This document shows positions 6,201-61,235 of a stretch of DNA of 64,000 nt, in pieces. Made by a program: the position numbers and the translations under genes. How positions within the stretch are numbered: the first letter of the stretch is position 1; every line of letters begins with the position of its first letter. The notes under the pieces were generated by a model, which saw only the letters and a program-made list of their open reading frames with translations, had not been told where the DNA came from and made no database searches. Location: the NCBI GenBank assembly GCA_003971905.1, contig RSEE01000035.1, positions 1-64,000 of the forward strand. The letters are read 5' to 3'. This DNA is from Moniliella sp. 'wahieum' (Eukaryota).

Positions 6201-7737
6201 AATAGAGGCGTACCCAGCGGGGCCCGACGAGGCAACCAAAGGAGGTAAGGCAAACGGAGAATCCCTTGGACTAGTGAAGCTTGAAGCTTGCAGCCGCAAG
6301 CGTTAGCCGCTCAGGCTGAGCGCTGACAAAGGAAGAAGGGAAGACAGCTTAATTTGAGCGCTGAGCCTCGGCGCTGGCTGATGCGTGATACAGCGGATAT
6401 TCTCGTGGGGGGATCCCTATCACATGCATCAATCAAGGGGGTTGCGACGATCACATGCGATGACGCACAACTATCAGAAAACTGAGCTGAGACTGAGCGC
6501 TGAGGCTGAGAGGCTCAGAAGTGCAGAAGCGCTCAGAAGCGCTCGGGCCTCCTCAGGGCTGGCTCAGGAACCACAGTCCAGAACGTTCAACGTTGCAGGA
6601 AGGTATTGAGAGTCTTCTCCATGTTGCGTCCATTTCATTGACAGAGCTTTAGGCTGGGACAGGGGGAACGCTACGTCTAAACCTAACCGTTCATCTTGCG
6701 GGGGTTACTTAGTCCATTGTATTGAGAGGGTGTCGCGATCGTCTGTGGTTATAAAGGCCTTTTAGGTATTTATCCTGTAATCAACTTTCCTTCGTCTCCC
6801 GGCCCTTCCTGGCCATGTCTACTCCCCTCAACCCACGAATCCTTTTGTGGGTCTACTCATCTTCCCCAGACTCTTAAATAAAAGGAACCAATAAGCATTG
6901 CAGCGGCGTACTCGTCCCACACTCCTTTATAATTCCCACTCGCACTCTGGCGTAAACACAAGTGACAGGCACTCAGGCACACTCCAGCCAAAGAACAATA
7001 GTAACTAGTAACTAGTAACTAGTAACCTGGTACATGGTAGCCCCAATATGATGGCACTTTCGGGAGGGGCAATATTCAATCGGGTATTGCACTTTTGTTA
7101 GATCACCTGATCGATCACGCATGTCAGGGTTAGGTCTTGGCAGGATTAAATAAGGCCTAAAGGCCTAAGGGAGACGACGATGCCGATGACCGATGCAATG
7201 AGCGTCTGAGGTCTACTCTAGTGATCGGCATGCCTGAATGAAGCACTGTGCGAATGCACTGAGAGTACGAAGGTACTGAGAGCACTGGGGCCGATGAGGC
7301 CGATGAGGATCGACGCGCAACGAGAGCCTCTCCCTTTCTTCGTAGGCTGTTTTCACTGTCTCGACTTCGGCGCTGTGTGGTGAAGGTCATCGTGCATGAC
7401 GTCACACAGTGGGCGAGGGGGGGGCAGTAGGTAGTGTGCTGGTGTTGAGGCGGTCAGCTTGAGAGCTCCGACACAACCTGCATGACTGGCAGGACCGTCT
7501 TGATGCGCCTGAGGTCGGGTGGCCCCGTGTGTGACCGAGACATATGGTGACTTATTTGTGACTGCATGACGTGTTGTCGAATCGTTGATGCTCTCGGGCT
7601 CCTTCTTCTGGCCCCCAGGATCAAAGCGCAGTGGCCCCAACAGAAGATAGATATAAGGCCCACCCCCCTGCCCAACCCTCGACACCCGCCAGCGTCTCCA
7701 TCGCCTTCGTTGCTCTCCTCCGTCCACCCTTTCCGTT

Positions 7738-8936
7738 ATGGCTCCGTCCCTCCCAACTCCCTGATCCTCGTCACCTCCGGCAGCGGCTTTGTCGGTGCGT
7801 GGGTGTGCGAGTACGCGCTGCGTGCTGGCTACCGTGTCCGCACCACCGTCCGCTCCGCCGCCAAGGGACAATACCTGCAGCAGATCTATGCCAAGTACGG
7901 AGACAAGTTTGAATATGTGATTGTGGAGGACCTGCGTACCAAGGGTGGCTTGATGCCGCCGTTCAAGGTGTGAAGGGTGTGATCCATACCGGCTCGCCCG
8001 TCGACAGCGACCCCAGCCTCCACCCAGACGACAGCTTGATTGCCCCCGCAGTGCAAGGGACGACGAACGTGTGGAAGCTGTGCAAGCCCAGGGTTCTGTC
8101 TCCCGTATCGTCCTCACCTCCTCCACCTCGGCCATCATTGAGCCCGACGCTGCCGCCAACGCCGTCTTCACTGCCGACGACTGGAACACGGCTGCGCTTC
8201 AGCTCTACCGCGCCGACCCAACCGGGGAAGGCAAGAAGCACGGCTACGAAGCTTCCAAGGTCCTTGCTGAGCGTGCGTGGGACTTTATTGAAACCCACCA
8301 ATCCGCGTTTGACTTGACCACCATCTGTCCCACCGTCATCTTTGGCCCGCCCATTCAAGCCGTCGCAGCGCCCGAGAAGCTCAACTTTTCCCTCCGGATC
8401 CAGTGGGAGCTGTTTGCGGGTAAGGTCCCGTTGGACAAGTACCAAGAGCCCATGGGAGGGTATGTGGATGTGCGTGACGTGGCGGAGATGCACGTCAAGT
8501 CCCTTTCCGTGCCTGCAGCAGGCGGACAACGGTACGTCCTCCTCCTTTTTGAATCATGTGGTGAACCCTGTGTTTGGCTTTGTATCTAACCCATCTTGTC
8601 TTATCCGGAACAGCATCCCCGCGTATGCCAACACCTACACGTGGCAAGAGTTTAGCGATGCAGTGCACGCCTCCGAGGTGGCTACGCCCGAGTTGAAGCA
8701 GCGCGTTCACGAGGGTCGTCCGGGCAGCGGTTGTGGGCGTGATTCAGACTCGTGTGGATGGTAGCAAGGCGGAGAGTGTGCTCGGTGTATTCTACAAGAA
8801 TGTTCAAAAGATTGTGGATGGGGAGATTGTTGCGTTCAACGACTATTTAAGCGTGGCTGGACAGGCGTACCGAGCGCCGAGGTTCTCGCACTCAACTAAG
8901 CGTCTGCCGACCCATCAAAGAACTATGAATTCATGA
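7738..8936 (+). CDS. NAD(P)-dependent epimerase/dehydratase family, aldehyde reductase II / Gre2-like
   Basis: LILVTSGSGFVG, GYRVRTTVRS, VIHTGSP, PAVQGTTNV, RIVLTSS, YEASKVLAERAW, YVDVRDVA. Intron near 8532-8613. 3' end uncertain. Confidence 0.88.
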
Positions 8937-9360
8937 TAATGGGCGCTGAGCTACTAAAGCCGCGGTCTAACTTTAGAAGGACGTGAAATCAGACTGAGGA
9001 GCGAGGTAGAGTAGGTGCATCCCATCATAGAGGTGGCGCGCAGAGAGTACGAGGACGTGCACGATGATTCTATACATGATGCACGGGGGGGGGATGGTGC
9101 GAGGTAGCAGAAGCCCCCAGCAAACGGCTCCCTGACAATGGGATGGTCATGAGTGCTCAATGCTCAACAGGTCTATCGTAGGAAAGCGGACGAAAAACGC
9201 AGGGTATGTTGGCACGGGATGATAAAAATTACAGTTTCCTGAGGTAGGGGAACATTATGCCCGTTGAGACAACGAGAGCCCACAGGCCGCAAGCCTGATG
9301 AGCCAGACGCAGAAACCTCTCCAGAAGCAAAGAGAGGCCGCAGAATGATCACCTTCCTCA

Positions 9361-10785: not shown

Positions 10786-11565
10786 GGAGACGAGGACAGG
10801 GTGGACGGGGATAAGGACGGGCGGCGATGCTGGTGGGAGGAGCGGGCGGTAGTCGTCGACCAGGATGACTGAGATGATCGGTGATTGATGACGATGAACG
10901 GGGCTGGTGTGCCCCAATCGCAACAGTGCGCTAGTACGGCCAACCCTAGCTGCGGTTATATCCATAGCCCCGAATCACCTCGATCATCGATCATCGATCG
11001 CTGTTCGGTTTAACGTTTAACGTTTACGATTAACCCTGTTCTGCCTTGTGAATTGCTTCGGCAGCCATCGGGAACCCCGAGGAACCACCGGGAAACCCAT
11101 CTAGACTGCGGCGAACCCGGCGGGGTCGGGTTAGATCTTCGATTCGGACGCAATTGGGCTGCGCACTACCCCATCAATAGGACCAATAACAATGCGGTTA
11201 GCGGTGCATCTCTCTTGAACGTGGCAGTATGAAGGTGTTGAAGCACCCCTCCTTGCCCACCGAGATCGCGCTCTCGCCAATGCTTCGCCCACTAGCCTTG
11301 GCCTATACGGCCTAAGCTAAGGCCCGAGCTATTATTATCGTCGAAATGTGCATTGGAGCAAGTAGAGCCAGCGCGGGGAAGCGCCACGGGGGGGCAATCG
11401 AGCCCGGCTCAGACTGGAGCTGAGCGCCAAGAGACCGGTGGAACGGTATACAGTCTGGTTCAATGGAGAGGTCTGATGAACAGCATGCAAAACAGACCAA
11501 ACCTGGCCGGATGTGGTAGAGGGAGGAAGCAAGGGACGAAAGGACACTTGCACGCGTGATGAGGC

Positions 11566-12183: not shown

Positions 12184-13703
12184 GATGAGAAGAGTGGTGC
12201 GGGGCCTGGCTGTGGTGGTGGTGAGGCGGCGCTGTTTGGCGTGGAAGCTGGAGCTACTTGCCCAGTGTCCAGGTGCTGTCTCCGCTCCTAGTCGGCTCAG
12301 TGATTGCCAGCTAGTATCAGCCGCCGCTCTGGCTGACAATTCCTTGCGTTCGGCGCAAAAAGAAAGCAGCAGACAAGTCTCTTGCAGCCCAGCTGGGGGC
12401 CTCGGTGAACACAGCCGCCGTGCCTTGACCACGTGACAACGCACCAGGGCTCAGCCAGCCGGCACGTGACGTGGCCGTGAAAGAAAAGACGAAGCTGGAG
12501 AAGCGGTCTTCCGCCAAACCGAAGCCAGCATCCCGCTAATAGCAGGTTTGGGGTGGTGGTTGGGTGCAATACTCCATCCGTTAGGTACGCCTTCTGAATA
12601 ACTTCCATGTCATCACTCAATGTGCGTGCGCAGGTGGACCAAAAAACTCCAGTTAGGGCGCATCAAGGCCATCATGAACCATCACAGGACGGTCTCGTGC
12701 CTGGCGAAGAGATAATATAGTGGACATGATCAAACTGTTGATAACAACAACAGCAAGTCCTCCGTCAAGGGATCTATACTTGACGACTTCTCTCTAACTA
12801 TGCCACAAGCTAATAAACCGGATGACACACTAGACAACTGACGAAGAAAAGCCCCTTTAATTCGAGTCGGCCATCGAGAGATCGATATTCCCTGACCCTC
12901 TCACACAACACTGAGGTGGGTGGATCGATCCTGCCTCTGGTCGAGAGGCCGCGGAAGCGGAAGGGAAGGAGGCTGGTATCAGGGATAATCGATAACCGGA
13001 ATAACCAGCCCTACGCGCATGGGATGTCTGGAACAAAATGCGAAGACTTCCGCATACCTGTGGTTTCGCTGTAAAAGTCAATGGCATGTGTGTTATCCGC
13101 TCACTCCATTCTCTAACAAACTTCAATCATAATATAACCACGTTTTGTCCCCTGTTATTGGCAGGAAACGTGTACTGGGGGTTGGAGAGGAGTGTGCGTC
13201 TTTAGATTGAAGTAGATCAACCGACAGGGAGAGAGTCGAAAGTACTGAGGGATGTTTTGGTCTGTAGGGAATAAGAGAAATGTGATGCATAGAAGCCATC
13301 CTTGTCAGCCTCGTGTAGGAGAGGTACATTAAGTACAGGAAGAAAAGATGACATGCTCCACCAACGAGACATGACTGGACGTGAGGCGTGAGGCCTGAGG
13401 CCTGTGAGGATCCTAAGGGGAGTGGGGGAAAAGACCTTGGTAAACCTATAGGGAGACCTCGGTGATGAGGTAATTTAGACCACATATGGTCATGTTACAC
13501 TGTGTGTGACTCGGATAACCACAGGGCAGTCTTGACGTAGACACAGCCCAGGCAAGGGATACAAGAGGAACGTGGATGAGCACAGCCGGGATCAGCACTC
13601 AGCCCCTGCGCAAGCTCATGGCTCATCCGCTCGCTGTCGCCCCGTGGCAAAATACCCGTATAACGAAAATACGGGCGCTTATAGTACAAGCGCCACGCCA
13701 TGT

Positions 13704-18050: not shown

Positions 18051-18780
18051 GGTTGTGGTGGGGAGTGTCAAAGCGGGGGGAAGAGGGGGATGGATGGGAT
18101 GCAGTGGGACTCGTGGGAAGGGGCGTGTGTGCCTTGAAGGACCCTGGCGCGTCTGTGGCTCTTCTGGGGCCCCTGAGGCGGCCTGTCCAGGGTTAAGATC
18201 CAAGTTTAAGTCTTAACCCTGGCGCAGCACCTCAACGGCAGGGGGCAACGTGGATCCATTGATTGAACGTTGAACGTTCAGTTCAGTTGAACGTTGAACG
18301 TTGAACGTTGCATGGACGTTGCATGGTGTTACTAAGTGCTAACTGAACGTTCAGGGCTGAACAATAATCCTGTGCAAAGCGGCACCGTTCCGCCCCTGTT
18401 CGCCCTACTGTCGCGCCTGTGGACTGCTTTCCCCTGTTAGCATCGCTTCTTCCCCTGCCTTGCTCCTTCAAATTGTCAACTTCTGCCGGCGGTTACGTGA
18501 GCATGTCGGCGCGGGGTAAATTTAAAGTCATTTTAGACCTTCTGTGACTCAGGGACAACGGCCCCCTTGCTGTGGTTATAGCCGCCTAGGCATACTTAGG
18601 GAATGCGTGGGACAACATATCCCATTTCATAGGGGGCTGAGGCGGAAGCGTGGCGAAGCCGCTGCCCGGCAATGCAGATGTGACTGGGGGGAGAGAGTAC
18701 TGAATGCGCGGGCCTGATGCATGGGGGATGAGACGGTGAGTTTATTGAGAATCCAGAAGATCGAGTCAAGTGCATGCCAG

Positions 18781-19042
18781 TGATGAGACCTGGAGTCCTG
18801 AGGCCTGAGGCCTGATGCACCTGATGGTCCTCAAAGGTGATGCAATCGCACTGGGGTTGGTGGTGGTGATCTAAGCCAGCCAGCAACGCCTACAGAGGAA
18901 CATCGAGCAGCGAGTCGCCACCAGTAGGGGCTAAGCTGCAGAACAAGGAAAAAAACAGGAGAGTGAAAATATGGAACTCCCAAGCCTGAGGAGGAACTGA
19001 AGGGACATTGGCCAAAGCACAGCCACCCGATGGCTCAACAGC
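18781..19042 (+). repeat. Dispersed ~260-bp repeat family, copy A
   Basis: Aligns by eye with 46959-47213 (+) and 33355-33571 (-). Shared blocks: tgatgagacctggagtc, caatcgcactg, ctacagagga, gcgagtcgcca, ctgaagggac(a/g)ttggc. Confidence 0.85.
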
Positions 19043-19838
19043 ATGTCCACGCCTCCCCGGAATTGGAATCGGCGATGACATGAATGACACCGTCTCTACT
19101 ATATGTGATGCCAAGCCACAGGGCGGGGAGGGGCAATATCGGAAGACAGGGAACGAACAATGGACGGGGAGTCGAAAGGGGGCACGGCCGCGGATATAGA
19201 AGGGTGGTACAACGGAAGCCGTGAGGGACGCGAGTCAAGCTGCAATAAGCTTGAAGCTCCGAACAATTGTCTCGAATTTGGTTCGGCCGCCTGTCGTATA
19301 GTTTTGCTAACAGGTAACCGGTAACCCCACCAACCCGCCGGCCGGTAACCCCGGTGACATGTGACATGCACAAAGCATATGCGTGATGTGATCGATGATC
19401 GATCATACAGATCATCGAGATCACGGCCACTGGCTAGTGTGTGGCTCCATGATGCATGATCTGATGCATGACACGCGACGCATGTGACATGTGACATGTT
19501 ACGGATTATCGATTATCTCCGCACGGCGAGTTTCGGAATTTGGAGGATGACTCTGTCGACACGGCCCTATACCGTGCGGCCTCTGGCAGAATTCTCACCA
19601 TGCTCTGTCAGGCTCTACCATCGTCATCGCCATCATCACGACCAGCCCTGGTAGCGTATAAAAGACAAGGCCTGGGCGGTACGCTTCGTAATATCAGCAT
19701 CCCCATCGTCAAATACCCGTTGGCACACCTTTGCTCGCTTCTTTCTGGGGTGCGTTGTGGGCCTCCTATCTACCCCCTCCATTCACTTTTTTCTTTGCTG
19801 ATCTCTTCGATGCGAGCAGTCCCAGTATCGTCCGCATC

Positions 19839-30239: not shown

Positions 30240-30359
30240 TTGCCTGAGAATATAGCTGAGCGGATGTATCCCTGTTTAATAAAGCGGCGTGGACGTTTGC
30301 GCAATGTTCTGACGTAAGCCGGGCGTGCCACGGGCGTAAGAGGGAGTCACCCGCGCACA

Positions 30360-43003: not shown

Positions 43004-43125
43004 GGAAGGAAGGAGAAGGAGAAGGAGAAGGAGAAGGAGAAGGAGAAGGAGAAGGAGAAGGAGAAGGAGAAGGAGAAGAGGAGAAGGAGAAGGAGAGAAG
43101 GAAGGAGGGAGAAGGAGAAGGAGAA
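43004..43125 (+). repeat. (GAGAAG)n polypurine microsatellite
   Basis: About 120 bp of near-perfect hexamer repeat. Confidence 0.95.
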
Positions 43126-44392: not shown

Positions 44393-44620
44393 CTAGAAGA
44401 CCACCGGGCCTACGGCCCGGCCAGCTGGGGCTTCGCCCCAGCTTGGTGCTTGGGCTTGCTCGCCACCGTAGCCACCGGCCCACCGTTCCACGCTGGAGGA
44501 TTTTTATCACCCACAAGGAGACCACCGGGCCGACGCGAAGCCCCAGCTGGTGCTTGGTCGCCACCGTAGCCACCGTGGAACCTTCGCCACCTTAGCCACC
44601 GTTCCCCCTTCGCCAACACT
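44393..44620 (-). mobile_element. Helitron-like 3' terminus (second copy, with partial tandem duplication)
   Basis: Reverse complement ends ccgggcc-gta-ggcccggtggtcttCTAG|T. Homologous to 30360-30500. The block is partly repeated at ~44520-44610. Confidence 0.7.
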
Positions 44621-45129
44621 GACACTTGCGAGCGTGCGACTTGGGAGCACACTCGGAAGAAGAATCGTTAGCCCGGCGTTGGGCTTGGAGAAAAAATGGT
44701 AGAGTGCAAAAGGGCAGCAGCACTCTCACTCAATCCTTTTCAAGGCTATTAAGAGCGCTTAGCACCTTATACACCTACAATAGCAGTCTTCTGCGTGTCT
44801 CTTTTGCACCTATGCCAACAGCTTCTGCTCGTGAGCCTTCGTCTTCGATCGATCCCAGTGCTTGATAGCTTCCAGTTCCACTGTGCATTTCTGATGCCGA
44901 TCTCCATTTGATTTCCGTTTCGTTTCACCAACAAAACAGTACCCAACAAAGGCAGCACGCATATTGTTTTGCCCTTCTTTTTCCTCGGGAATAAAATGTA
45001 CCTTGGCACACGCAACACTTATAGTGTTTTTTGTCAGACACCAAGTTCGGCACCCAATGGGTGAGGGTAAATCCAAACCTCCTCGTCAGAAACGTCGTCA
45101 TCCGCTGCAATTCGTGCTAATGCATCCGA

Positions 45130-46310
45130 ACTCAGAACTTCCTTCTCAAGGGTATGTGTCCCATGACCCACCCAATGTCGGCAAGTGGGACGACAATGTT
45201 GTTTACTGATGCGAACGTCGCTCTGTGAAAGCCTTGTTCATCGCGTGGTAGAGACGCATTACCTTCAGCATCAATCGGATGAGTTCTACCAACAATGTAG
45301 TATTCGGAGCCCGCTTCATCGGTCTCCACCCCAATGTAGTAGTCAATCAACATGAAAAAGTGCCCATCGTGCGCCAATTGCTATACAATGCCTGCATTTG
45401 TTGTGAGTAGTTGCACACAGTGTCCTAGACGGGACGAGGCATTCTGACCCTGTTGCCCTCGAACACGTTGCCTGTTCTCATTTTTGGCCCCCACTCGGCT
45501 ACTGCCCAGATCGATAAATGGGCGGTAGGGTCAATGTTGAACGAGCACAGCAACGCCGCATCCCCCCTTGCACCATCGAGCCCATCAATAATAGCTTCTC
45601 GTTTGTGATTCAACCCAACCGAAAGTGTGGTCATAGCTTGGGGAGCATGGAATCCATGCGAATGCCAACCAAGTTATCCTGGTTCCTCCTGCTCGCCTCG
45701 TTAGCAAGGACAGGATACGGTTTGGTAAACGAACGGATATGGCGGCCCAACCATCCCTGTTCCCATTCTGCCGGGGCGGTCCATATCGCCTGCCAATTGC
45801 CGTATCTCCACATGTTGTCAGCCCAATGAAGAGTGTTGTGCACCGAGATCGAATGTGGTTGATCTCTTCGTTCAGACCGTTTGGAACAGTGAAGTCGTGA
45901 AACCGTGACAAAATGGCAGGGCCGTTGTTCGGAGACGTTCGACGTCGGTAGCATACATTTCCGTTTGACAAACAGCCTAAGCATCACGCTCCCACCAGAT
46001 CGAGTATCTGCTGAGGCAGATAATGCAACTTGACGAACGGATAAAGCATGCAACTCATATTGACTGCAATCTCAAACATGCGCATGCCGCTGTTACAAGC
46101 AGAACCAATCGAACGAGGCACTCCACTACAAAACGAAGAAGGAAGAAACCTAATCGACCTGTGTTTCAAGGTTAGCTCATTCAAATCAGTATAAGAAACA
46201 CAACTGTTTCGGGAATGAGGACGCACACTTCATCTGAAACTCGTTAAAAAGGTCAACATGAGCGGCACCCAAATGTATGGGCAATCTTGGATCACGTAGA
46301 CCGTTCTTCT
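45130..46310 (-). pseudogene. Unidentified, degraded intron-containing coding sequence inside the TIR element
   Basis: Successive coding-like frames (e.g. HDGHFFMLIDYYIGVETDE, REAIIDGLDGARGDAALL) and a gtgcgt..gctaac..cacag intron-like segment. No family recognised. Confidence 0.35.
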
Positions 46311-46958
46311 CAGATTGAGAAAGGTGGTGTGCATGGGCTCAACAGGATGAAAGGAAGGGCACATATGATGATGAGAGGCGCTTTCAGGTTGAGGTAATGT
46401 CGGCCATCCTGTATCTGCCTTGAAACAATTCTGGCTTGCGACTGACCCATGGTCTTCAAGCTCTTGTGCGTTGTACTCTGCAGTTTGACCCAGTCTTCGG
46501 GTATGCGCAACGGAGAATGGATGGTATCAATATCATCGCTTCCGTCGCCCAGCAGCGGGCAATTTCAGAGGGATGTGTTGTCGTTGGCCAATATACCCCA
46601 CCCCCATGCCTCTTGCGCCCAACAATATCGCAAGGGCGGCACGCTCGCTCGGGACACACTTGCCATAGATGTGCTTGCTGTGCTTTAGCGTCAGCGATGT
46701 TGTACATTACCGTGGTCTGAAGAGTAAACGACTCCAGGGGGCGGACCAGGGGGCGGACCAGGAGGCGGACATGATGATGGAGAGGACCGAGGGGAAAACC
46801 TGGCGAAGACGTGGAGAGTGGACCATCATGAGGGCCAGAGGGTGATATGTACTCCTTTGGAGCTCCGCGGACGTTCCCGGGGCCTCATTTGCCGCATCGC
46901 ACACGGCTATATACTCCACAGGAGCGTACATGTGCCGGCCCTCGGATGGGTGGACTTT

Positions 46959-47213
46959 TGATGAAACCTGGAGTCTGGATGGTCCTCGAGGGTGATACAA
47001 TCGCACTGATGGTGGTGGTGGTGATGGTGGTCTAAGTCAACCAGCAACCCCTACAGAGGAGCATCAAGCTTCAGACAGCGAGTCGCCACCAGGGGCAAAA
47101 CTGCGGACCAAGGACAACCAGGAGGGAGGAAACAAAACGGAACTCCTAGGCCGGCTTGAGGAGGACCTGAAGGGACGTTGGCAAAAGCACGGGCCACCCG
47201 GTGGCTCAGCAGG
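46959..47213 (+). repeat. Dispersed repeat family, copy C
   Basis: Aligns with 18781-19042 and the reverse complement of 33355-33571. Confidence 0.85.
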
Positions 47214-47685
47214 ACTGTTGGGACGTAATAAATGGTACGTTTAGAGCTCTTTGAGGCGCCAGGAGCTCTCGGAGCTCGGTGGCGTGTGGGTATGCTGCGG
47301 AGGTTGCCAGGGGCTGTTCCCACACGACAGCGCAGGGCTAATATGCTGAGCTGTGGGGGGTCCGTGCGTCGGCGTTACTGGTCTGTGCACCTTCCCACCA
47401 GAACCACACTGCTTTTGCTCTGTTGCATCAGTCCTCCTCTTACCGCCCCTTTCACAGTTGAATGATATATATACCCCCCCCCCCTCCCCCCCTCCACACC
47501 GGTCTCTCTTCCCCCTAACAACCGCCTTCCCGACATGCCTATCACTATAATTTCCACACTTCCTGCAGACCAACCGAAGACCAAAACTGGGGTAAGGTGC
47601 TAACCAAAGATCTGTCGGCATCTCAACAACTGATGCCTGCTGTCCTGTTGGCGACCAACCAATCGTCCCAGTACTGTCTTTGCTA

Positions 47686-47806
47686 GGTGTACTGACCTGC
47701 TGGGTGTACTGACCTGCTGTTGGGTGTACTGACCTGCTGGGTATACTGACCTGCTGCTGGTACTGACCTGCTGGGAGTACTGATCTGCTTCTTGGGTACT
47801 AACCTC
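47686..47806 (+). repeat. Minisatellite, ~7 copies of 17-20 bp gggtgtactgacctgct(gtt)
   Basis: Direct reading; copies are contiguous with no unique spacers. Confidence 0.9.
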
Positions 47807-48900
47807 TTCCTACAAGTGGGTACTTACATGCTTGGGCACTGACTTACATGGTATGCATGTTGGTATCATATATCAACCTCTGATGTGCTTGGTATGTTAA
47901 CCCGTACTTCCGCAGTGAGAATTACCGATAGCATGTCAAAGGGAGCATGCCACCATTTGTGATATCAAGCAACGGTACGATCGATTGCTGTGTGGATGGA
48001 ACTTGCGCGCGAGGCGGCCCCATTCTGCCTGTTCTGCCCCTTCCTGTTGCGCCTTCACGCTGCGTTTCCCTGATTAACGGCCTGAGGCCTGATTGCATCT
48101 TCTCCACCAGTATTGCCTTGCCTTGCTTGCCTCCCGTAGCACACCTTAGTAATACAATCACTATTAGCCCAACAGAGATGTCCCATATATCTAAAGGATC
48201 TAAAGTAACACAACTGCCAATGAGGCTAGTGAGGGCCGCATATAGGCCCCCAAAGTATTGAGCAATGTAACCCTGTACCGATACATTGCATTATAAGCTA
48301 ACCCTAAGGCTTATAAGCTAACCCTAGTGTAACCCTAGGACGCCATTTCCATTCCGTGGTAACCCGTGGTAACCCTTGGTAACCCGTGGAGTTCTGTGGT
48401 GTTTCCGTGGTTGAAAAAAAATTCTAACCTGTGTGGTGTGTCTATGGATTTCGTTCTCACTTTTTTTCAAGATGGAGGGGCGCACTTATCCCATAGAATA
48501 CAACAGTATGAACACGGAACGGGCACGGAAGAGGTACGGAAGAGGTACGGAAGAGGTACGGAAGTGGTACGAAGGGCACGGAAGTGGTACGGAAGTGGTA
48601 CGGAAGAGTACGGAAGTGGTACGAAATGGGCGGAAGTGGTACGGAAGTGGTACGGAAGAGGTACGGAAGTGGTACGGAACGGGCACGGAAGTGGTACGGA
48701 AGAGGTACGGAAGAGGTACGGAAGTGGTACGGAAGAAGTACGGAACGGGCACGGTATGCCACGGAATCCAAACTACGGAATACTACGGAATACCACGGGA
48801 GGGGTACGGAATCACCGCGGAATACCTGGAGCCTCGGATCAGTGAGCATCAACAGTACACCATATATAGCGTGCTCAATGATCGGAGTGTGGTGTACATG

Positions 48901-51900
48901 CCATAGCTAATCGAAATTTCTAGCCCAGAACCTTGCCGGCCACACCACAAGCTTGTCTTTAGATTTGAGGGGCACAACCTTGTCACAGCCTCGCCAACAC
49001 AGCTAGCCCCAACCTCTTGGACCACACTGCGGCAAGGCCGCCCAGCGAGGTTGTCCCTAGATTGCTGCCTATAAAGCTCGTCACAACCTTGCCCGCTATT
49101 CTAATCACAATATATTGTGAACGGCGGCCAGCCTCGAGCCATCTTAAAAAAGATGGCCCACCCACGAACTAACCTGAGGTTTCTCCAGCCAACAGTAGGA
49201 ATTGGCCGTTGCACCATTGGAGCCTAAGACTCCCGCAGCAATTTGGCAATCTTTGGGCAGCCACACGTGCTGTGTCCGCTTTCAGCCAAATCGCTAAAAA
49301 CTGATAGACTGATGGTGTAGAGTATACATCAACAGTGGTGACTACCATCATTAGTAGCCATTCGGGAAATATCTAAACATCCATTGCGGATTGTACTGCC
49401 TCCAAAACATCGTCGGCAGAAGGGACATTCTCGCCCTCGACCGCCCAGTCCTGGGCAAAAGCCAAGTCCGCAAGTCGCAGAATATCGGTGTGGGGAGAGA
49501 CAGAGTTGACAAAGTGGTTGAGCACGTAGCGCTGCACCGCCGACGTCCCAGACAAGTTGTTGTGCTGGACCCCATCGAACGTCAAGCCAGTGGTTGTATC
49601 CGTAATGCTGTTGGGGACAACCCGGCACTTGGCCTTCACGCAATTGTGCTGGACGTTAAGCGGGCCAAAGATGGTGTGGATCTGTGAAGCCGGAATGTAA
49701 GTCATGCGTCGGGCGGACGCGCGCGGTAGCTCCAGGCCTCGCATGTCATATGCCGAGTCGATAGGCATGATGCGAGCCAAAGCGACCTTGACCCAAAGCA
49801 CAGGGAGCACAAGGTTGGAACCAGTCCTCGCTGCTCCCGACCCCCCCTCGCGAGTCGGATTGGCCCGCGGGTGCACAGCAACCATATTATTAGGCCGTTG
49901 GGCGGCAATGTGTTCTATCCGGCCAATGGAGAAGGGCGGTGCATCAGGATTCTGGGCATGGCGGGGTGGGGGACTTCACCAATATCCTGTTGGGCAATAA
50001 GCACCCAGTCCCCCCTGGCACAAAGCTGGCCATGCTGTACGCGGACCAACGGCATGTCGACAATATCTTCGACCGGCCCAGTGGCAGAACGCCCCTCTGC
50101 TGTCACTTGTTCAGGAAGCCCAACCTTGTCGTGCACCGATATGACTTTGGCCTTAGCCACAGTCTGGATCGAAGCCGGACACGATCCAGCGCTGGAAGGG
50201 CTGTTGCGGCCCATACCGGGTGCGGGAGGGACTTGCCACACACTGCCGAGCCCTTGGCCCAAGAGCTGAATCGTCGTGCCAGCCTGAGGCGGCGCAACAT
50301 TCAATTGCAAAGCTGCTCGGCCCCTGCCGATCCAGACGTCTGCGGACAATTTCTTGGTGTTCCACCGGGCAGACCCTGTTCGCCTCCTCCCCTTCATCGT
50401 CAGGGGTTGTATCGCGGGACACGAGTTTTGCACGCGGCATGTCGATTGCCCGCCCTCCACATAGCAGGTTTTGCAGGTTCTCCTGGGCTGCTACCTTGTA
50501 GTTCAAGTCGCGGCAGATATCTTTGCGGTTCGTAAATATGACGGCCTTGCGCATGACGCGGACAAACTCCTCCTCACGCTGCGTGTCAGCGTTCTTGAGA
50601 GGACCCCACAACAGCGCCTGCTGGGAGAGGTGACTCAGAAGGTGGAACTTGGGGCGATGAACGAGCATGGCCGGGTCGATGGCAGCGATGGCCATGAAAT
50701 GTGAATCACCGCCTTGTCAAGCAGTTCCTGTGGGACATATGTACGGGGCAAAATGTAAGCTGCGAACTAGGACTATAGCGAAGATGATCACGGGCCTAGG
50801 AGAGCGATAGCAGTTTCAGACGTACGCCATATGTAGCCCGGTCTTGAAATGCGAAGCCATCGATGTAGCAAAGCCACTTAATGCGTGCGGCGGCCACAAT
50901 GCACTTGCGGACATTCTCCAGCCTCTCAATCTTGCTCAGAAGTCTCTGTCTCGCCATTTCCGTGACGCCGGGCTTGGTGGAGTCCAACCGTAGCATGGCC
51001 GCCAAGTTGGGCAGCACCAGAGGGAGAGTCTGGCACAATATCTTGCAGTCGACCCCCGTGACTGAGCGCATGCTGTGAACCACTTTAGTGCCATTGAGCC
51101 GTCGACGCACCGATTCCATGCCCCGCGAGTTGAGCGAATCCAGCCACAGCGCTAGCGAGGACCCCTTGTCGAAGTTCGAGTCCGTCAGCAGCTCGATCGA
51201 GGCCTTGACTGGTCCAAGGAGAACTGTGTGCATGACGTCGATCGCCAGGCTCTTGCCGACCGAGAAACTCGAGCACCCCTGCCATTCGTGGACAGTCAAA
51301 AGGGGGTTGAACACGTAGCCGTTGTTCTTGAACTCATCCAGCAGCTCACGAACGTCGGAGTCCAAATTGGAAAGCAGCCTCTTGCGCTTCTTGCCATTCG
51401 TCGCCCCTGCTGAGTCCTCCAGAGTCTTGCGGAACTTGAACAGGATAAAGGATACGTCTTTCATGTACTTGTCGTTAACCCCGGTCTGGCTCCCCCGGTC
51501 GTCGACACGGCCGTCGTTCTTGACGACCATGTCGAGTTGGTGATCGACTTCGCGCCTAGTTTCGATACTTGAACGTAGATCGCCTCCCATCTTGATGTGT
51601 CCGCCGGTAATGGTCAGTCCCATATTTTGATATGCACAGCAGTAACACCAGTGGTGTCGTATACGCACCAGACAGTCTGCCACGTTCTCCGCCAACGTGT
51701 TCGTTCCCCGTTGCCGTCCGCAATCGCAAAAACGGCAGCACACGTGGGCAGTCATGCCCATAATGGAAGCCATCTCGTTCGCGGCCACGTTGTCGCCCTT
51801 TATCATCCCGCAACGGGCTGTACAAGGATCCATCCCTCGGTGGTCGAATCCCAGACAGGGATGAGCTCTTCGTGATCCTGCCTGCAAGTTCGAAAAAGAC

Positions 51901-53805
51901 GTTAGCATGCTGCTTTTGCCCAGGAATCACGGCGACTTCAAAGGCAACTTGGCTTAGATTGCGATACTCACTTAGGGTTCTAGCTGTTTTACCAACTGCT
52001 CACACAACGGGAGGAGAGACTTGGCCGTTTCCGATGCAAAGAGGAAAAGGTTCCTTGCCCATCTAGACTGCGACCGTGAAACGTGCATGTTGCCCAGCAG
52101 CATGCTGTTCAGAGAGCTTGGCCGATTGGACACATTGTCTGCAAAACCATCAGCCCAGCCCACTAGCTGGAGACGGACCAGAGCTCGGCCACAGGCCTTG
52201 GCTCGAAGGGGATTGACGCTCTTCCCAATTTCCTCACCGTCCCTTGTTCCTGTGTCGTACCAGGATGTGGAAGTCATCAGTCAACCCGACAAGAATTGCC
52301 GCTGCGTGAAGAGCAAGAAAACTTACTAATGGTATAGTCGTCGTAGAGGCGCAACTTGGTTATGTCCAACTGAGTAAGAATGAAGGCGCGTGTCCTGTTG
52401 CCGGTGAACTTCAGCAGGTTGGACGTCTCGTCTTGGACCAGGTCGATTCCGATCCCGTGCCACGAGTCGCTATCAGCGTCGTGTTGCCACAAGACGGGAA
52501 AGATAGGCGCGAAATGCTGACCAGGTGAACAGATTCGCCAAGGTACATGTGAATGGCCAGATCGCGTGGATGCTTATTGAGCATGACCATCGGCTGAGTC
52601 CTTGTGCCGATCAGATCCCATCGTCCCTTGTGTGGTTCTTCAATGAACCCGTCCTTGAGGGCCTGGACAATCGCCCTGAGCGACCAGGGATTGGGATACT
52701 GTGACATCTTGGAGCGGATGGACGAGTTCGAGGACATGTATGAGGTGGAAAATGCGGTCTCGCCCGCGAAGGACCCAATGTATATCGTCTCCTGATACAA
52801 ACTGCTCGATACACACGAGGGCTGGCACACCGTCTCGATTGCCTTTTAGTTTTGTTGAGCGAGTAAAGAGAGGCAATTTCCCTTCGCTCTTGACCGCGAC
52901 TTGTGCGAATGCGGTTCTCTCGCAACGAGACGGTTGGACTGGAGTATCGTGCTGTATATAGCTGCTGTCACGACTATCTCAAGTGCGTAGCTTAAAAAAA
53001 TCTATATATATACTAAACGCTCAGGCTGCAGGTGGGCGCCTTGAGCTGGCGGTGGCGTGGGGGGGCAACACTGGCGCCATGCGGGTGGACCACCGGTGGG
53101 CCACCGGTGGTTGCGCCTATAACCGCACGGATCATCGTTCGCCGTATGGTTGCGGGACTCATTCTCCCTCTCGAACGCGATGACGCTTCGTCCCCACGCC
53201 GCAAGTTGTATGGCTCTTGTATCTTTGCCCTTCGATCCCTATCATCTCCGTGTCCCCATGATGTTTTTGGTCTGCGATTAAACGACGAAGGCAAAATTCT
53301 GTGGTTGCCGCCGTCCCGAGGCTCCTCGAACAACCTGCCGTTGCCTTGGCGCTCCTCTACGTCTCTGTGTCTAAACAACCATGGCAATGCATGCTTTTAA
53401 AGATAATCCACTGCCTGATCTGATAGCATCGTGGCACCCTAGCCGCCACCCTAGCCACCACCCTAGCCACCACCCTAGCCACCACCCTAGCCACCGCCCT
53501 AGCCACGCCCTAGCCACCGCCCTAGCCACCGCCCTAGCCGCCAGTCTAGTGAAAAATCTGTGGCTAGCCTTGCCACCAGCCTGCCAGCAAGGCTGCGGAC
53601 TGTCCGGGGATAGGTGGGGGGTAGCTGGGGGTAACCTGGGGCCAAGTTGTCGGGTATAGATTGTCTCGACCTTGGCGACCATCTTGCGCAAGCTTTTCTT
53701 GTACAGGGTTGTGGCACTTCTAATCATAGACTCACGGTATCAAATTCTTACCTTGAGGCGAGATCGGCGGCAACGTTGTGACTAGAAATTTCGATTAGCT
53801 ATGTG
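48901..53805 (-). mobile_element. CMC (EnSpm/Mirage-like) DNA transposon, ~4.9 kb, probable 2-bp TSD TG
   Basis: TIR C(A)CATAGCTAATCGAAATTTCTAG at 48901 and reverse complement ending at 53805. TG flanks both ends. Subterminal (CCCTAGCCACCA)n at 53436-53545. Internal transposase. Confidence 0.87.
49373..52950 (-). CDS. Fungal EnSpm/CMC-type transposase, divergent, with introns and frameshifts
   Basis: Ordered family motifs WADGFADNVS, GDNVAANE..CCRFC, FNPLL..IDVMHTVLLGPVK, RPKFHLLSHL..WGP..TQREEEF..TNR..RD, NVQHNC..C. 5' end uncertain. Confidence 0.8.
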
Positions 53806-55796: not shown

Positions 55797-56184
55797 AAAG
55801 GGAAAGGAAAGGGAAAGGGAAAGGGAAGGGAAAGGAAAGGGAAAGGGAAAGGGGAAAGGGAAAGGGAAGGGAAAGGGAGAAGGAAAGGGAAAGGGAAAGG
55901 GAACGACTGTTGCTTTGAGATCAAAAAAGGTGACACAAGAGTATTGCGAGAGAGACTGATTTTTGGTCTTGCGAACTACATGCACCATAGCAATGATATC
56001 TGAGGGGGGAAAGGGAAAGGGAAAGGTAAAGGGAAAGGGAAAGGGAAAGGAAAGGGAAAGGGAAGGGAAAGGGCCGGTGATACGACTGTTGCTTTGAGAT
56101 CAAAAAGGTGACAGCAAGAGTATTGCGAGGAGAGAGACTGATGTTTTGGTCTTGCGAACTACATGCACCATAGCATGATATCTG
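55797..56184 (+). repeat. Two (GGGAAA)n tracts, each followed by the same ~100-bp unit (tandem duplication)
   Basis: Tracts at ~55797-55902 and ~56004-56072. The unit acgactgttgctttgagatc..gatatctg occurs at ~55903-56002 and ~56082-56184. Confidence 0.92.
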
Positions 56185-56355
56185 CAAAAGGAGAAACCAG
56201 AATCTGGGAGTGAATAAACTCAGCGACCTTATCGATATCGCTCGTCCTCTTTTTGCTGAAAGCGCGTTGTGAGCGCACTGCTCCATTTCCTTTCGTCGAA
56301 TGATGGCCCACAAAACTCTACACCGGAGAGTCAGGCCGGGTCTCATATATATTTC

Positions 56356-56620: not shown

Positions 56621-56874
56621 TTTCACTCGCACTTTTGTCACGGCGTATTCAGACAACCGCTTTATTAGGGCTTTTGCGATCTATTAGGTACAATGCGATC
56701 AATGGGTCGATGAGCGCTCCAAGATCGTGTGTGCTGGAGGGGCGTCTTTGGGGGTGCTAGCAATGCATGGGTGTGGCGCGTGGATCGTGACGCGTGGCTG
56801 GTGGAGGTTGGAGTGGCAATTTAAGTTTAGGTGATTGTGGCTGTAGCCACAGCCGCAGGGCATTCTAGAGCGGC

Positions 56875-59800
56875 TGTGACATGTGACATGCGTCATCACA
56901 TGTGAAGCTTGAAGCTTGCAGCTTGAAGGCTGTCCGAGACAGCAGAAAACTTACCAATAGCAGCCACCAGCATCAGTGCATCAGAGCCAGACAGCGAGGG
57001 CATGAGTACGCCCAAACTGAGTTTTCTGATAGTGTACCTGCGCATCAAAGATGGACGTCAAGGCGTCGCGTCAGCCTATATTATTTGCTCTGTGGCTCAG
57101 CGCGCTTCGCTCAGGCTGAGCATGACGCTCATATCAATATTCAATGGACGGTTTAGGACGGGGGAACTTGTATAGCCCAAATTAAAACGTGCGAATGCCG
57201 CCAATGGTCGCAGATAGAACCAGCACGGCAGCTGCAAGATCCACGACTCGGTACTCAGGCTAAGGCCCTAGGCCCCAGGCGGCCTGGCCTGACCGTGACC
57301 GGGGCCTGACGGTGCCCTGGCCCTGACCGGACTAACATGTAACAGGATGTCTGCGACCCAGGGTACCTAGCATCCTAAGGTCTAAGATCAAACCGGTAAC
57401 CGGCAACCGGTAATCTCGGGGATGTAAGGCCCAAGGACCCTTCTGTTGGGCCCTTTTTGGGGCTTGATGACATGCATGATGCATGATGATGATGCATGAT
57501 ACATGATGCATGATGTTGATGCTTGATGTATGGAGAATGGACCTCCAGAGACACTTTGCCACATGAAAGCGGTCTACTGCTAATCACTGGTCACCGTCAC
57601 TAGTCATAGTCACTAATAGCTTCAGCTTCACTCGCTTCAAGCTTCAAGCTTCAAGCTTGAATCGACTGGTATAATGAGTGCATCCTACGGTGCCCTGCCG
57701 GTGCCCTGCCAGCCCTGCCAGCCCTGCCGGGGCGGCCTCGCACGAGGCGCTAGCGAGCTCCACCAAGCTCCACTCCTGCGGCCGAAGGCGCTGTGTGAGT
57801 GGTGCCCAAGCCACCCCCATTGCAGCGAGGGCGCGGGTCCCTGTGTCGCATTCTGAAAACTGTGCCAGGCGCCAGCCCAGGGCTGCGATCTGAGATTATC
57901 GAGACTATCTGAGATCTGAATCTGAGATGGATCACCGATTGTCGACCCCCACTCCCGTCTCACGCGTCACGTTCACACGCAGAGACGACGATCTGGGCGT
58001 GCCCGATCCAGGATTCTGGAGAACAAGGGTTTGGAAGGGTCCCGAATTCTGGGCCAGACTAGCTGGTTGCACGTTGCTCGCAACCTGGCTAGTCGTTACA
58101 TGTTTCTTGTCGGAATACATGATGCATGATGCATGATGCATGAATATGAATGGGGCTCTGGCGACCGGATGTTGGATGTCCTCGATCATCGATCATCGAT
58201 CATCGATCATCGGCCATGCATCCACCCCGTACCACGCCCTTCTACGCCCTGCTCTGCCCTGTCCTGCCCTCCCAGGCCCTTCCATACACCACCCCACAAG
58301 CCAAGGTATGACATGTGCGTGCAATCTGACTCACATGTGCACGTGCCGGGCAAAGCAGAAGGACGTGCGAGGTTTGTGATGCGAAGGGTGAGATCTGAGA
58401 ATTGATCATCGATCAAATGTCACACATCGACGTGTGGCTGAGTACGCGAGTGCGCTGTGACCGTCAGCTCTCAGGATGAGGCAGGCATACGGCCCTGAAG
58501 GGCCGAAGCCCTAGCGAGGGTGGTTATATAGTGTAGGGGAGCCAACCAAAACGACACCTACTCACGGGACGTCACCAGCCAGTTGCCTCTAGGTCTGGTC
58601 GGTGGACCAGAACAGCAGATGCGAGAACCATGGGCTTAAACCTGAGGCGTAAGGCTCTGGCGTGAGGCTCACAGGCTTGACAAGATGTGCTTCAAGCTAT
58701 TTCGAGGTGAAGGAGCGAAGGAGCTTGAAGAGTTGGCCACAGACCCGACCCACTCGGTGACTGAGAAACGTATCGATGAGGCTGGATTCCATGTACGATG
58801 CGATGAAGTCACACCATTCCGCATCATGAGCATCATGCATCTTCATGCACACCGAGGGCCATACTGAGTGTTATTGCCGCGTCAGTCGAGGGAGCGATGG
58901 GAACATTCTCGACCTCTCAACGGCTGAATCCAGGAATACCCCATGCTCGACTGTAGCCTGTCTGTTGGTGTATAGCACCATCTATCTACCTTGCCTTGTC
59001 GCTCCGTGTATCCAGAAAGAGCGCACTGGTTTTTAATGCTGTGTGTGGTTACCGGTTACCGGTTATATCGCGGGTATATACCCACAATACTCCACCGTCC
59101 ATCTCATCCACTATACGTGACGCATGTGGGATGCTGGACTCGGACCGATGAGAGGGCGATTGAGGGCCCCGCGCGAAGACTGTGATACATGTGATGCATG
59201 TGAGCGTGAGCGGCTGAGCGCGCGGTAACCCGGTGACCCGGTGACAAGACTACACTAAACACACGTTTAACGTTAAAACGTTAGCGATACGGAATACTTC
59301 TTTAGGTGTCCGAGCCATGTGGGCCGAGCTGAAGCGCGAGGCGCTGATGCCTCAAGCTGAGGCCCTCTCGGGCCTCAGGCGCCTCAGGCCGCCTCAGGGC
59401 CGCGCCCGCCGCGAGAAGGCGACGGATGAGATGCGCGTGAGGGTATTGTGAGCACACGGGGGCACATGTGTTTCTTCCTGGAATAGGCTGCGGTTGCCGC
59501 TTGCCCCGGTTATTGAGTTGCGGGGTACGGGGTACACGTTAGATACATGAGTTGCAAACGTAGGACTGTTTACTAGTTGGCTGCGGCGAACCTCCTGTAA
59601 AAATGCATAATGCGGTGGAGCCCTTCTCATAACCGGCATAACCTCTTTCCTCAGGATTTGGGTCGCGACCTGCCGCTGCCCAGCGCTATGCGCTATAGAA
59701 TCCGTTCACGTTCACCGTTTGGCCTTCACGCGGTATGGAGGGCGACCTGTATTATGCCACACACTTGTATTAACTATACCCAAGCGCGGCAGCCCACGCT

Positions 59801-60300
59801 GAGGCGCTGTGATACATGTGAGCGCGCTGAGGCCATAAGCTTAAGTTTTAAGAGCTTTAAGATCTAAGATCTAAGAAACTGGCCACGGTTATGTGGTGAG
59901 CAGTATGATTAACGGCCTTAAGGTCTTGGTCGCGCGGTGAGGGCCTGCCTCAGGCGGTCGGCCGGTCAGGAACCCTCAAAGACTCAGATCGCGAGATCAG
60001 AGCGGGGAAGAGATGACGCGTGATGTGTGAGGAGCGATGCATGATGCATGATGCTCTGATGAAGTCGAAAACGCGTTCCCGCGTTTATGAGCGCAGAGCA
60101 GGCATCATGCATCATGCATCTCGTATATATCATCGATCACTAGTCACTAGTCACTAGTTGCTAGTCACTGATCTCGATCATTGATCACCAACACTATGAC
60201 ACATTAAAGATTGACGCGTGACGTATTAACCCATCACTCGATCGTAGTGTGACCGGCAATACTCTACAGTACTAAGTACGCAGTCTGAGTGCTAAGCTAA
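56875..60300. repeat. Dense field of period-7 palindromic micro-arrays (ANNNNT-N)n
   Basis: Examples: (AAGCTT-C)n 57635-57660, (ATGCAT-G)n 58118-58143, (ATCGAT-C)n 58183-58211, (ACCGGT-T)n 59047-59065, (AGATCT-A)n 59858-59875, (ACTAGT-C)n 60137-60160. Confidence 0.9.
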
Positions 60301-61235
60301 CTAGCGGTGCGTGATGGTGATGGGTTTGATTATCTCGAGTATCGATGGGCACTGGGGCCGAAGGATGCACTCGCAGGGAGGGCGAGCGCAGGCCAGCGCC
60401 GCCAAGGCGACGCAAGGCTTGCGGGAAAACTGCAGGCGAGGCGATCGAAACCAACAAAGCTCGGTGTAGCTCCGAGACATGAACTAGACATCACCACCAG
60501 CGCTCAGATCTCTGACCACCCCACCGCCGCCACCGGCCATGCCGCCACGGCAGCCATGGGCCAGAGGAGCGGTGCCCTGCTGTGCCCTGCTGTGCCTGCT
60601 GTGCCTGCTGTGCTGCTGTGCCCTGCTGTGCCTGCTGTGCCCTGCTGCTGTGCTGGCGGCGGTGTGTGTGAGTCTGTGCACAGCTGCCCATTTATCCATT
60701 CTGCATTCTGCATCTGCATTCTGCCCCGGAACAGCCTGGCCCAGGCGCAGCGCGGCAGTCGCGAGAGCTAGGAGCGTGCTGCACATAGCAGGCTGCCCAG
60801 CCACTGTACGTAGCCAGCGTCCTGGAGGCCGGGGGATGGAGGGCTGCGTACTGCGTATGCCTGCCCGGTTGCTATCGGAGGTTGTGCACCAGGCGCCCTC
60901 GGGAACCTGTGTCGCCCCTCCGACCCACCCGGCTTCCTGTCCTGCCACCACCACCTCCCAGCCCCCCCTCTCCCTCCCCCTCGCCTGGCCCTGCTCCCCG
61001 CGCCAGCCCTTCCCCCCTCGTCTCAGGCCCCCTGGCCTCAAGGTCCCGCTTTTGTCCCTACCCACCGCCCTGCCCTCTCCGCCCCAGCACTCACCCTCGG
61101 CTGCAGACATCCAGCGCCCCTCCAGTCACTAGTCACTCCAGTGCTCCGCCTCCACCCCCAACAAGCGTCCTCGGCACGTGAGCTCCACGTTAGCCCATCG
61201 TCACTTTACCCCACCCCCCGCCCCCACCTTTCGCC

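Follow-up and report, generated by a model that had tools for sequence, protein, structure and literature searches.

Period-7 Palindromic Micro-Arrays at TNA Sites in a Fungal Chromosome End: Candidate Stacked Excision Scars of a DNA Transposon

The first 64,000 nucleotides of contig RSEE01000035.1 (forward strand) from the Moniliella sp. 'wahieum' assembly GCA_003971905.1, referred to here as the window, contain many short arrays in which a TNA triplet and a 4-bp palindrome alternate with a constant period of 7 bp. The elementary event behind these arrays is the change of TNAxy into TNAxy·y'x'·TNAxy (primes mark complementary bases), which is identical on either strand; the repeated block is TNA plus two neighbouring bases, and those neighbours template the 4-bp palindrome. 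We consider it probable, though not firmly so, that the micro-arrays are stacked excision scars left by a cut-and-paste DNA transposon or transposon family, a reading drawn from the sequence. What is observed directly is how the scars are built, how often they occur, and that one element residing in the window has a 7-bp duplication of the matching form. All counts come from this one window, plus control loci from other fungi.

The Period-7 Signal and Its Controls

The original prediction had listed hexamers of the form A-xyy'x'-T at 24 positions. The hexamer is present at all 24, and exact period-7 runs of at least 15 nt are found at 21 of them; the three shorter cases are two copies of AACGTT 7 nt apart (6582), a 14-nt run (19316), and a single TGA-GCGC-TGA (6318). 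Counting exact period-7 arrays of at least two copies + 1, we found 37 in the window, 27 of which consist of a 6-bp palindrome plus one base, and the hexamer is of the type A....T in all 27. When runs of period p are compared at a threshold of p+3, there are 22 arrays of period 7, none of period 8, and 17 of period 6, the last being mostly purine-rich simple repeats. Palindromic hexamers of the A..T type number 327 against 182±13 in 50 Markov-1 simulations, while the other outer pairs show no excess in the window (T..A lies at the simulated level, and C..G and G..C lie below it). The same A..T hexamer recurs exactly 7 nt away 31 times, whereas hexamers with another outer pair never do so. Identical 4-bp palindromes at a spacing of 7 occur 90 times against 16.4±4.2 expected, whereas spacings of 5, 6, and 8–12 give 16–38 in the window against about 16. 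The comparison with period-6 and period-8 equivalents that had been proposed as a check thus leaves period 7 standing out alone, neither of the others showing the effect.

The excess is confined to one flank type. The 10-mer TNA-pal4-TNA (pal4 being any 4-bp palindrome) with the same N on both sides occurs 85 times, against 2.7±1.7 in 100 simulations, and the remaining 15 X-N-Y flank types of the same 10-mer occur 1–12 times each. Outside long open frames the count is 78 against 1.43±1.03 simulated. As an outside control we used 35 loci (~305 kb) around SEC22 relatives of other fungi in metagenomes; there the TNA type accounts for 9 of 395 such 10-mers, compared with 85 of 183 in the window. 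The control loci have no TNA excess: the statistic carries no bias of its own, and the pattern is specific to the lineage.

Grammar of the Repeat Unit

Three regularities go beyond the original prediction. First, the N is inherited: it is shared by the two TNAs around a core 85 times and differs 12 times, where chance would give a ratio of 1:3. Second, the flank templates the core. We scored as a flank signature any array in which the 2 nt after the last TNA equal xy or the 2 nt before the first TNA equal y'x', and found it in 53 of 68 arrays, against ~12% by chance (right only in 18, left only in 17, both in 18, neither in 15). The rule belongs to TNA. The 12-mer TNAxy·y'x'·TNAxy occurs 52 and 51 times in its two orientations on the plus strand, against 0.2 expected; among generic 12-mers of the form pqrst·t's'·pqrst, TNA centres account for 103 and no other p-N-r for more than 9. 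Among the 68 arrays 15 different cores occur, and 57 arrays have G or C as their centre base.

Third, the ends of the arrays are quantised. The overhang to the left of the first T is 0 nt in 23 arrays, exactly 2 nt in 24, and 1 nt in 10, and right ends fall directly after TNA in 26 arrays and after TNAxy in 17. Array length is 5 modulo 7 in 28 of 68. Several arrays mix cores while keeping phase and a single N (at 6270, 56898, 59187, 60125, and 60499), as in ACATGT-G-ATGCAT at 59187 and AGCGCT-C-AGATCT at 60499; this in-phase mixing argues against slippage as the origin.

Simpler or related units were tried and set aside. Tandem duplication of a palindromic 7-mer fails as the general unit, since the junction 7-mers of the mixed arrays are not palindromic. 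A 5-bp duplication with two P nucleotides is disfavoured in that its mirror form, TNAxy·N'A·TNAxy, nearly always coincides with the main form; it stands apart from the main form only in GGTGATC at 42055, which is better taken as a plain 7-bp duplication, and at one other site. The excess of TNA-nnn-TNA (71 against 42±6) stems from telomere and coding repeats. We found no larger duplications in the window that would explain the arrays as copies of one another.

Some tracts use the same pieces at other periods (18305–18326, 59181–59245, and 7152–7168). Their units are 11 bp (two 4-bp palindromes plus TGG), 9 bp (a hexamer palindrome plus 3), or 8 bp (CCGG plus TGAC; AGGCCT plus AA), and scars of abnormal size are a possible source. 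Palindromes of the CTGAG/CTCAG and GCTCAGGCTGAGC types, both C-TSA-G motifs, form dense runs beside the arrays at 6300–6560, 57090–57125, and 59330–59400, and may represent decayed scars at GC-flanked TSA sites.

A Model of Stacked Excision Scars

From this anatomy we infer that the scars arose by excision; the hairpins, the nuclease that opens them, and the transposase responsible belong to the same inference. Insertion would begin with a 7-bp staggered cut at ab-TNA-cd (mostly T-G/C-A), duplicating 7 bp. At excision the transposase would cap both flanks as hairpins exactly at the element boundary, and a host nuclease, of the Pso2/Artemis or the Mre11-Sae2 type, would open each hairpin 2–3 nt beyond the tip. 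Opening at k nt would transfer k bases to the opposite strand, producing a 3' overhang of 2k nt that is self-complementary. For k=2, the left end would read ...ab-TNA followed by cdd'c', and the right end TNA-cd... with b'a'ab on the other strand. Depending on the strand kept, the joint would be ab-TNA-cdd'c'-TNA-cd or ab-TNA-b'a'ab-TNA-cd; both 4-nt overhangs fill the same 4-bp gap, so that the joint would always be 7 bp longer than the target. T and A being complementary, the palindrome would read as an A-xyy'x'-T hexamer, and k=3 would yield the same product as k=2. An opening at 4–5 nt would complement the second N, and k=0 would leave a plain 7-bp duplication.

Stacking would follow from the product itself. 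Each scar would create a perfectly palindromic 7-mer target, d'c'-TNA-cd, and excision from a palindromic target would leave fully cohesive overhangs, so that repeated hits would add identical units; re-insertion at the edge of an array would add a different core in phase. The model accounts for a period that stays constant, a 4-bp palindrome that can have any sequence, an N that is inherited, a flank signature confined to one side, and array lengths of 7n+5.

The predicted products can be counted. Scoring exact 14-mer products, with sites counted on both strands, we found 29 sites that fit only k=2/3, 6 more that also fit k=1, and 1 that fits only k=1; a further class comprises 68 sites with a palindromic target. 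The N-complemented product predicted for k=4/5 occurs 5 times against 0.3 expected, and plain duplications (k=0) are seen at three loci: CG-TGA-GG at 13382, GG-TGA-TC at 42057, and TT-TAA-CG at 11011. In the manner of hairpin footprints, the scars retain the TNAxy duplication as a direct repeat, and their junction bases are the reverse complement of the adjacent flank, that is, P nucleotides.

A Resident Element with a Matching Duplication

An element of 4856 bp with terminal inverted repeats (TIRs) lies at 43991–48846 on the plus strand. Its termini are 78-nt inverted repeats, 91% complementary and starting CTCAC, with subterminal tandem repeats of 10–11 bp adjoining them; a 22-mer in the TIRs has no further occurrence in the window. 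Two copies of CATCAAC (CA-TCA-AC) bracket the element on the plus strand, at 43984–43990 on the left and 48847–48853 on the right. This target-site duplication is 7 bp long with T-C-A at positions 3–5, exactly the form NN-TNA-NN. A metagenome scan with the TIR motif of this element gave 0 matches. A scripted scan of the window for other TIR elements with duplications returned only chance inverted pairs of 9–10 nt; the same scan also missed the element at 43991–48846, which has a mismatch at TIR position 9.

A second possible element occupies 48902–53803, where perfect 22-nt inverted repeats with CATAG...CTATG termini stand 4858 nt apart; no clear target duplication was found at this TIR pair. 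It contains an ORF (open reading frame) of 376 aa at 50799–51926 on the minus strand. This ORF has 13 distant relatives (best E-value 1.9e-11), two of them with a sub-threshold Transposase_21 match, and the protein atlas points to Plavaka/Transposase_21 clusters; a search for a longer homologue returned nothing. To judge from its sequence, 48902–53803 is possibly a divergent CACTA/Plavaka-like transposon.

Weighing the Explanations

Several observations weigh against reading the arrays as excision scars. The uniformity of the scars is far beyond that of published footprints, which vary in form: in Candida albicans, 28 types were counted in 128 events, according to the available part of PMC5873905, and in rice few excisions were 'perfect' (PMC4423477). 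The side products that might accompany such a reaction are not convincingly enriched in the window (TNA-TNA, 56 against 43±7; TNA-pal4-pal4-TNA, 1 against 0.2). Fifteen of the 68 arrays carry no flank signature, and some mixed arrays, such as that at 60125 at its left edge, fit only with assumed point mutations. Among single-unit scars with a signature, 15 of 42 (36%) had a palindromic target from the start, compared with 6% expected, a surplus that calls for an extra assumption: a preference of target or repair, or the decay of longer arrays. In homogeneous arrays, elongation by slippage or microhomology is inseparable from re-insertion. The element with a 7-bp duplication is a single case (n=1), and a central T-N-A would arise by chance with a probability of 1/16. 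No Pfam match (E≤0.1) was found in the 28 frames of 70 codons or more scanned inside it (44183–48290), making it non-autonomous or decayed, and Pfam detected no transposase elsewhere in the window; its autonomous partner, if any, lies outside the window.

The alternative that survives best, though we hold it to be unlikely, is an enzyme independent of any transposon, for instance a domesticated transposase or some other nuclease, that makes 7-bp-staggered or hairpin-capped breaks at NN-TNA-NN, with host repair adding the 7 bp; this takes the rewriting process of the original prediction at its word. Site specificity and a stereotyped product would suit any single enzyme, the window has yielded no transposase gene, and the uniformity of the scars goes beyond that of published excision footprints. 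A nuclease acting alone would, however, leave its target unduplicated, and a direct duplication of 5–7 nt is a hallmark of integration; an element with an exact, TCA-centred 7-bp duplication is, moreover, present. We know of no precedent for a transposon-independent enzyme of this type, though no search was aimed at one.

Replication slippage or microhomology-mediated duplication of palindrome-bearing heptamers, perhaps aided by hairpins and with no site-specific enzyme, is less likely still. A TNAxy repeated 7 nt apart could seed identical units, homogeneous arrays reach 4.7 copies, and microhomology-mediated tandem duplication has been reported as a conserved process (PMC13167724, available text). 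Such a process leaves the first unit unexplained, as it does the restriction of the excess to TNA (103 against at most 9), the spacer whose sequence is reverse-complementary to the 2 nt beside it, the 7n+5 ends, the in-phase mixed cores, and the lack of any effect at periods 6 and 8; nor is the pattern found in the 35 other fungal loci. The free choice of unit and phase, with identical units, that marks slippage-type micro- and minisatellites is not what the arrays display. As a sole origin, slippage is refuted by the 12-mers with flank-templated cores. The original claim, that ordinary slippage is unable to keep the period and the TNA fixed together, is borne out, and the in-phase arrays of mixed core argue likewise.

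TNA is also the classic 3-bp target of the IS5/PIF-Harbinger lineage. A PIF/Harbinger-like element could duplicate TNA and, on excision, leave 2 nt of each inverted terminus (xy...y'x'), and the product TNA-xyy'x'-TNA formally suits this. It predicts no relation between core and flank, yet that relation is present in 53 of 68 arrays, which strongly disfavours it; the 15 cores would require a dozen or more families with different termini, and no such element was found in the window. The target centre of Harbinger is usually A/T, but the centre here is G or C in 57 of the 68 arrays. Harbinger makes 3-bp duplications (PMC12730594, in the part available), with filler that would come from the termini, whereas the block repeated here extends 2 nt past TNA. 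We regard this explanation as very improbable.

We give as little credence to the arrays being selected cis-regulatory elements, that is, binding-site arrays for dimeric factors kept by function. They are non-coding and flank genes, and palindromic hexamers are typical binding sites. Against this stand fifteen unrelated cores under one grammar, no core conserved across loci, the commonness of decayed copies, and a flank-templating that has no regulatory rationale; secondary regulatory co-option of arrays may nevertheless occur. An assembly or consensus artefact is very unlikely, the pattern being sequence-specific and non-coding, with decayed copies and a flank-templating rule, and no error of sequencing or polishing is known to us that would put in 7-mers templated in this way.

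Stacked excision scars thus remain the reading we prefer. The original prediction had seen one enzymatic process repeatedly rewriting NN-TNA-NN sites. A single process acting repeatedly at these sites is upheld by the TNA-only enrichment, the flank-templated core, and the inherited N. The enzymatic part of the claim stands as a repeated, site-specific process; it need not involve a novel enzyme, transposon excision followed by hairpin repair being the simplest account. In open-access literature text we found no description of stacked arrays of this kind.

Distribution and Catalogue of the Arrays

The arrays had been described as intergenic, and this largely holds: stop-free frames of 150 codons or more take up 48.6% of the window, yet 79 of the 85 TNA-pal4-TNA seeds lie outside them. 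Seeds cluster at 6–8, 18–20, 28–32, and 56–62 kb, and only 4 fall in the repeat-rich, ORF-poor region at 42–56 kb. The hot zones sit between Pfam-supported genes. At least one is flanked by diverging genes (DUF2838 on the minus strand and an ORF from 19540 on the plus strand), a second separates an adenylate-forming/PP-binding gene on the minus strand from an OYE-family gene on the plus strand, and a third is the 3.9-kb ORF-free stretch at 56.4–60.3 kb, upstream of an ORF with a forkhead domain. The lag-7 identity is 0.34 at 56.4–60.3 kb and 0.33 at 18.0–19.55 kb, against ~0.25 at neighbouring lags, from which we estimate that roughly a tenth of these two stretches carries period-7 structure. 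Proximity of most arrays to promoters is plausible.

In the leftmost cluster, a mixed and part-decayed tract (6275–6326) reads ACTAGT-G-AAGCTT-G-AAGCTT-G, continues in degenerate units, and ends with TGA-GCGC-TGA, in phase 42 nt (6 × 7) further on. At 6999–7026 stands AG|TAA-CTAG x3-TAA (28 nt), its core CTAG templated by the left flank AG. An adjacent pair at 10980–11026 joins TCA-TCGA (20 nt) to GT|TTA-ACGT x2-TTA (19 nt), and at 13380–13404 CG-TGA-GG is duplicated without a palindrome (a simple 7-bp duplication, k=0) before TGA-GGCC units follow.

Around 18–20 kb, TGA-ACGT arrays of 16 and 25 nt are succeeded by the 11-bp unit ACGT+TGCA+TGG, present twice (18263–18326). The array CC|TGA-GGCC x2-TGA at 18797–18815 is 19 nt long, of the 7n+5 class. 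To its right, a 48-nt segment (18823–18870) is 88% identical to 46978–47025 inside the TIR element; the likeness reflects either captured host DNA or an element remnant. Seven short scars or arrays are packed into 19313–19517 (TAA-CCGG, TGA-CATG, TGA-TCGA, TGA-TGCA twice, TGA-CATG, and TTA-TCGA), and this cluster stops ~25 nt short of the ORF start at 19540.

Between 27 and 32 kb lie a TCA-CTAG array of 16 nt (27727–27742), a TCA-ACGT array of 17 nt (28021–28037), and, at 28233–28283, a TGA-TCGA scar followed by GA|TGA-AGCT x4-TGA-AG, which is the longest homogeneous array at 33 nt (7 × 4 + 5). A scar cluster at 31097–31732, upstream of the OYE-family gene, comprises TGA-AGCT, TGA-CATG, TGA-CGCG, TCA-TGCA, and TGA-TGCA. 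At 42055–42073, GG-TGA-TC x2.7 is a TGA-centred simple 7-bp duplication with no palindromic junction.

In the 56–62 kb zone, 56875–56928 holds a mixed array in which TGA-CATG x2 gives way to ACATGT-G-AAGCTT-G-AAGCTT-G with a TGC variant unit. A long, decaying TGA-TGCA tract with a TGATGATGA run within it covers 57472–57532. Further arrays follow: TCA-AGCT, 25 nt, at 57634–57658; CA|TGA-TGCA x3-TGA, 26 nt (7 × 3 + 5), at 58118–58143; TCA-TCGA x3-TCA, 31 nt, at 58182–58212; GG|TTA-CCGG x2-TTA, 19 nt, at 59047–59065; and TAA-GATC x2-TAA-GA, 19 nt, at 59858–59876. Two ATGCAT arrays of opposite orientation (60036–60054 and 60102–60120, within 60036–60120) are 19 nt each, 100% complementary, and 47 nt apart; either an inverted duplication produced the pair, or the arrays arose independently on the two strands. 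A mixed array at 60125–60169 reads ATATAT-C-ATCGAT-C-ACTAGT-C-ACTAGT-C-ACTAGT with a decayed continuation, N being C throughout.

Genes and Setting of the Window

At its very start (1–495 region) the window carries 4.5 copies of the telomere-type repeat CCTAAC, which identifies it as the end of a eukaryotic chromosome. Coding-like DNA nearly abuts this repeat: a fragment frame of a short-chain dehydrogenase (adh_short, E-value 2.5e-06) begins less than 500 nt from the window start. G+C content is ~55%, and open frames are broken up, as for intron-bearing genes. A SEC22 exon lies at 39864–40688 on the minus strand; its closest named proteins are from Ustilaginomycotina (Tilletiaria anomala, 77%; Moesziomyces, 75%), with unnamed matches of up to 94%. 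These similarities mark the fungus as a smut-related basidiomycete. The nearest related locus is 1.6 kb long, with 74% protein identity.

Frames at 22599–25328 (minus strand) match a PP-binding domain and, below threshold, AMP-binding_C (23.0 bits, against a cutoff of 24.5 bits), which suggests an adenylate-forming gene resembling those of non-ribosomal peptide synthetases (NRPS-like) near the chromosome end. Long purine-rich microsatellites occur as (GAAGGA)n at 43009–43125 and (AAAGGG)n at 55797–56184, the latter inside a 179-bp tandem duplication.

Implications

If the arrays are indeed excision scars, the pattern would be a natural archive of how a transposon leaves its site and how the hairpins are repaired, and an unusually clean one. 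The target NN-T[G/C]A-NN and the 7-bp stagger could then be read from genome sequence alone, as could the offset at which the host opens hairpins (mostly 2–3 nt, sometimes 4–5 or 0). Excision scars would be more than rare blemishes and could supply DNA between genes, along with short palindromic repeats close to them, in amounts that matter; the k-mer TNAxy·y'x'·TNAxy would flag past element activity in other genomes, even after loss of the element.

A bolder and rather doubtful extension is that a stereotyped reaction of transposase plus repair, focused on gene-upstream DNA, acts as a generator of promoter sequence. Were this so, each scar would offer the next insertion a target of ideal palindromic form, hot spots would reinforce themselves, and the arrays of palindromic hexamers would be raw material from which new sites for dimeric factors could form. 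The agent at work today might then be an enzyme that has been domesticated, no longer a mobile element.

Comparison with Known Systems

The chemistry of hairpin footprints is already known; a genome whose scars are stereotyped (+7, even palindrome), stacked into micro-arrays, restricted to a single triplet, and frequent enough to form a visible part of the DNA flanking genes was not found described in open-access text. The Tc1/mariner family (Sleeping Beauty) likewise leaves a fixed-length scar with two duplication copies around a short palindrome-like filler. In that family the termini of the element supply the filler and TA is what is duplicated, whereas here the filler derives from the flank and depends on the site.

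In V(D)J recombination, Artemis opens RAG hairpins a few nucleotides off the tip. As in the model proposed here, a perfect hairpin at the boundary is opened off its tip to give a palindromic junction (PMC5499845, available text). The reaction differs in having no target duplication, re-insertion, or arrays, and its junctions are trimmed and N-added where ours are stereotyped. The same source, as far as its text is available, describes flank hairpins for MULE, hAT, Transib, and RAG, and for the MULE Muta1 a flank hairpin holding both strands in full (43+43 nt). The Muta1 TIR combines a terminal motif with subterminal tandem repeats (PMC5499845, same text), a layout that the element at 43991–48846 resembles; no MULE transposase was detected in the frames of that element scanned by Pfam. 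Muta1 makes 8–9-bp duplications and is excised mostly precisely in yeast (ibid.), unlike what is seen here.

Duplications of 7 bp are known in Basidiomycota from hAT7 and Kyakuja, reported for Pucciniales and Agaricomycotina in the available text of PMC12730594, and the element at 43991–48846 shares with both a 7-bp target-site duplication. The available text contains 0 words starting with 'Ustilag' and gives neither a target consensus nor a scar pattern for hAT7 or Kyakuja. Kyakuja has CA..TG termini and no TIRs (PMC12730594, same portion); the present element, by contrast, carries TIRs of 78 nt with CTCAC as their start. It is not assigned to either group, no hAT or KDZ transposase domain having been found in its scanned frames and its termini being unlike those of Kyakuja.

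A close parallel in scar anatomy is the hAT family, with footprint data from plants, Saccharomyces cerevisiae and C. albicans, described for Ac/Ds in yeasts in PMC5873905, of which part of the text was available. P-nucleotide palindromes occur there at Ac/Ds scars and depend on hairpin opening by Pso2, and the distance from the tip at which hairpins are opened differs between yeast species. As here, both duplication copies are kept and flank-templated palindromes stand at the junction. Host opening of the hairpin by Pso2, followed by end joining, is documented for Ac/Ds (PMC5873905, same part) and is proposed for the present scars. The hAT palindromes are odd-centred on a base complementary to the one next to the element (ibid.), whereas ours are even and lie at the duplication boundary. 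Finally, hAT footprints are heterogeneous and built on an 8-bp duplication, while the scars in this window rest on 7 bp, are almost always +7, and are stacked one upon another.

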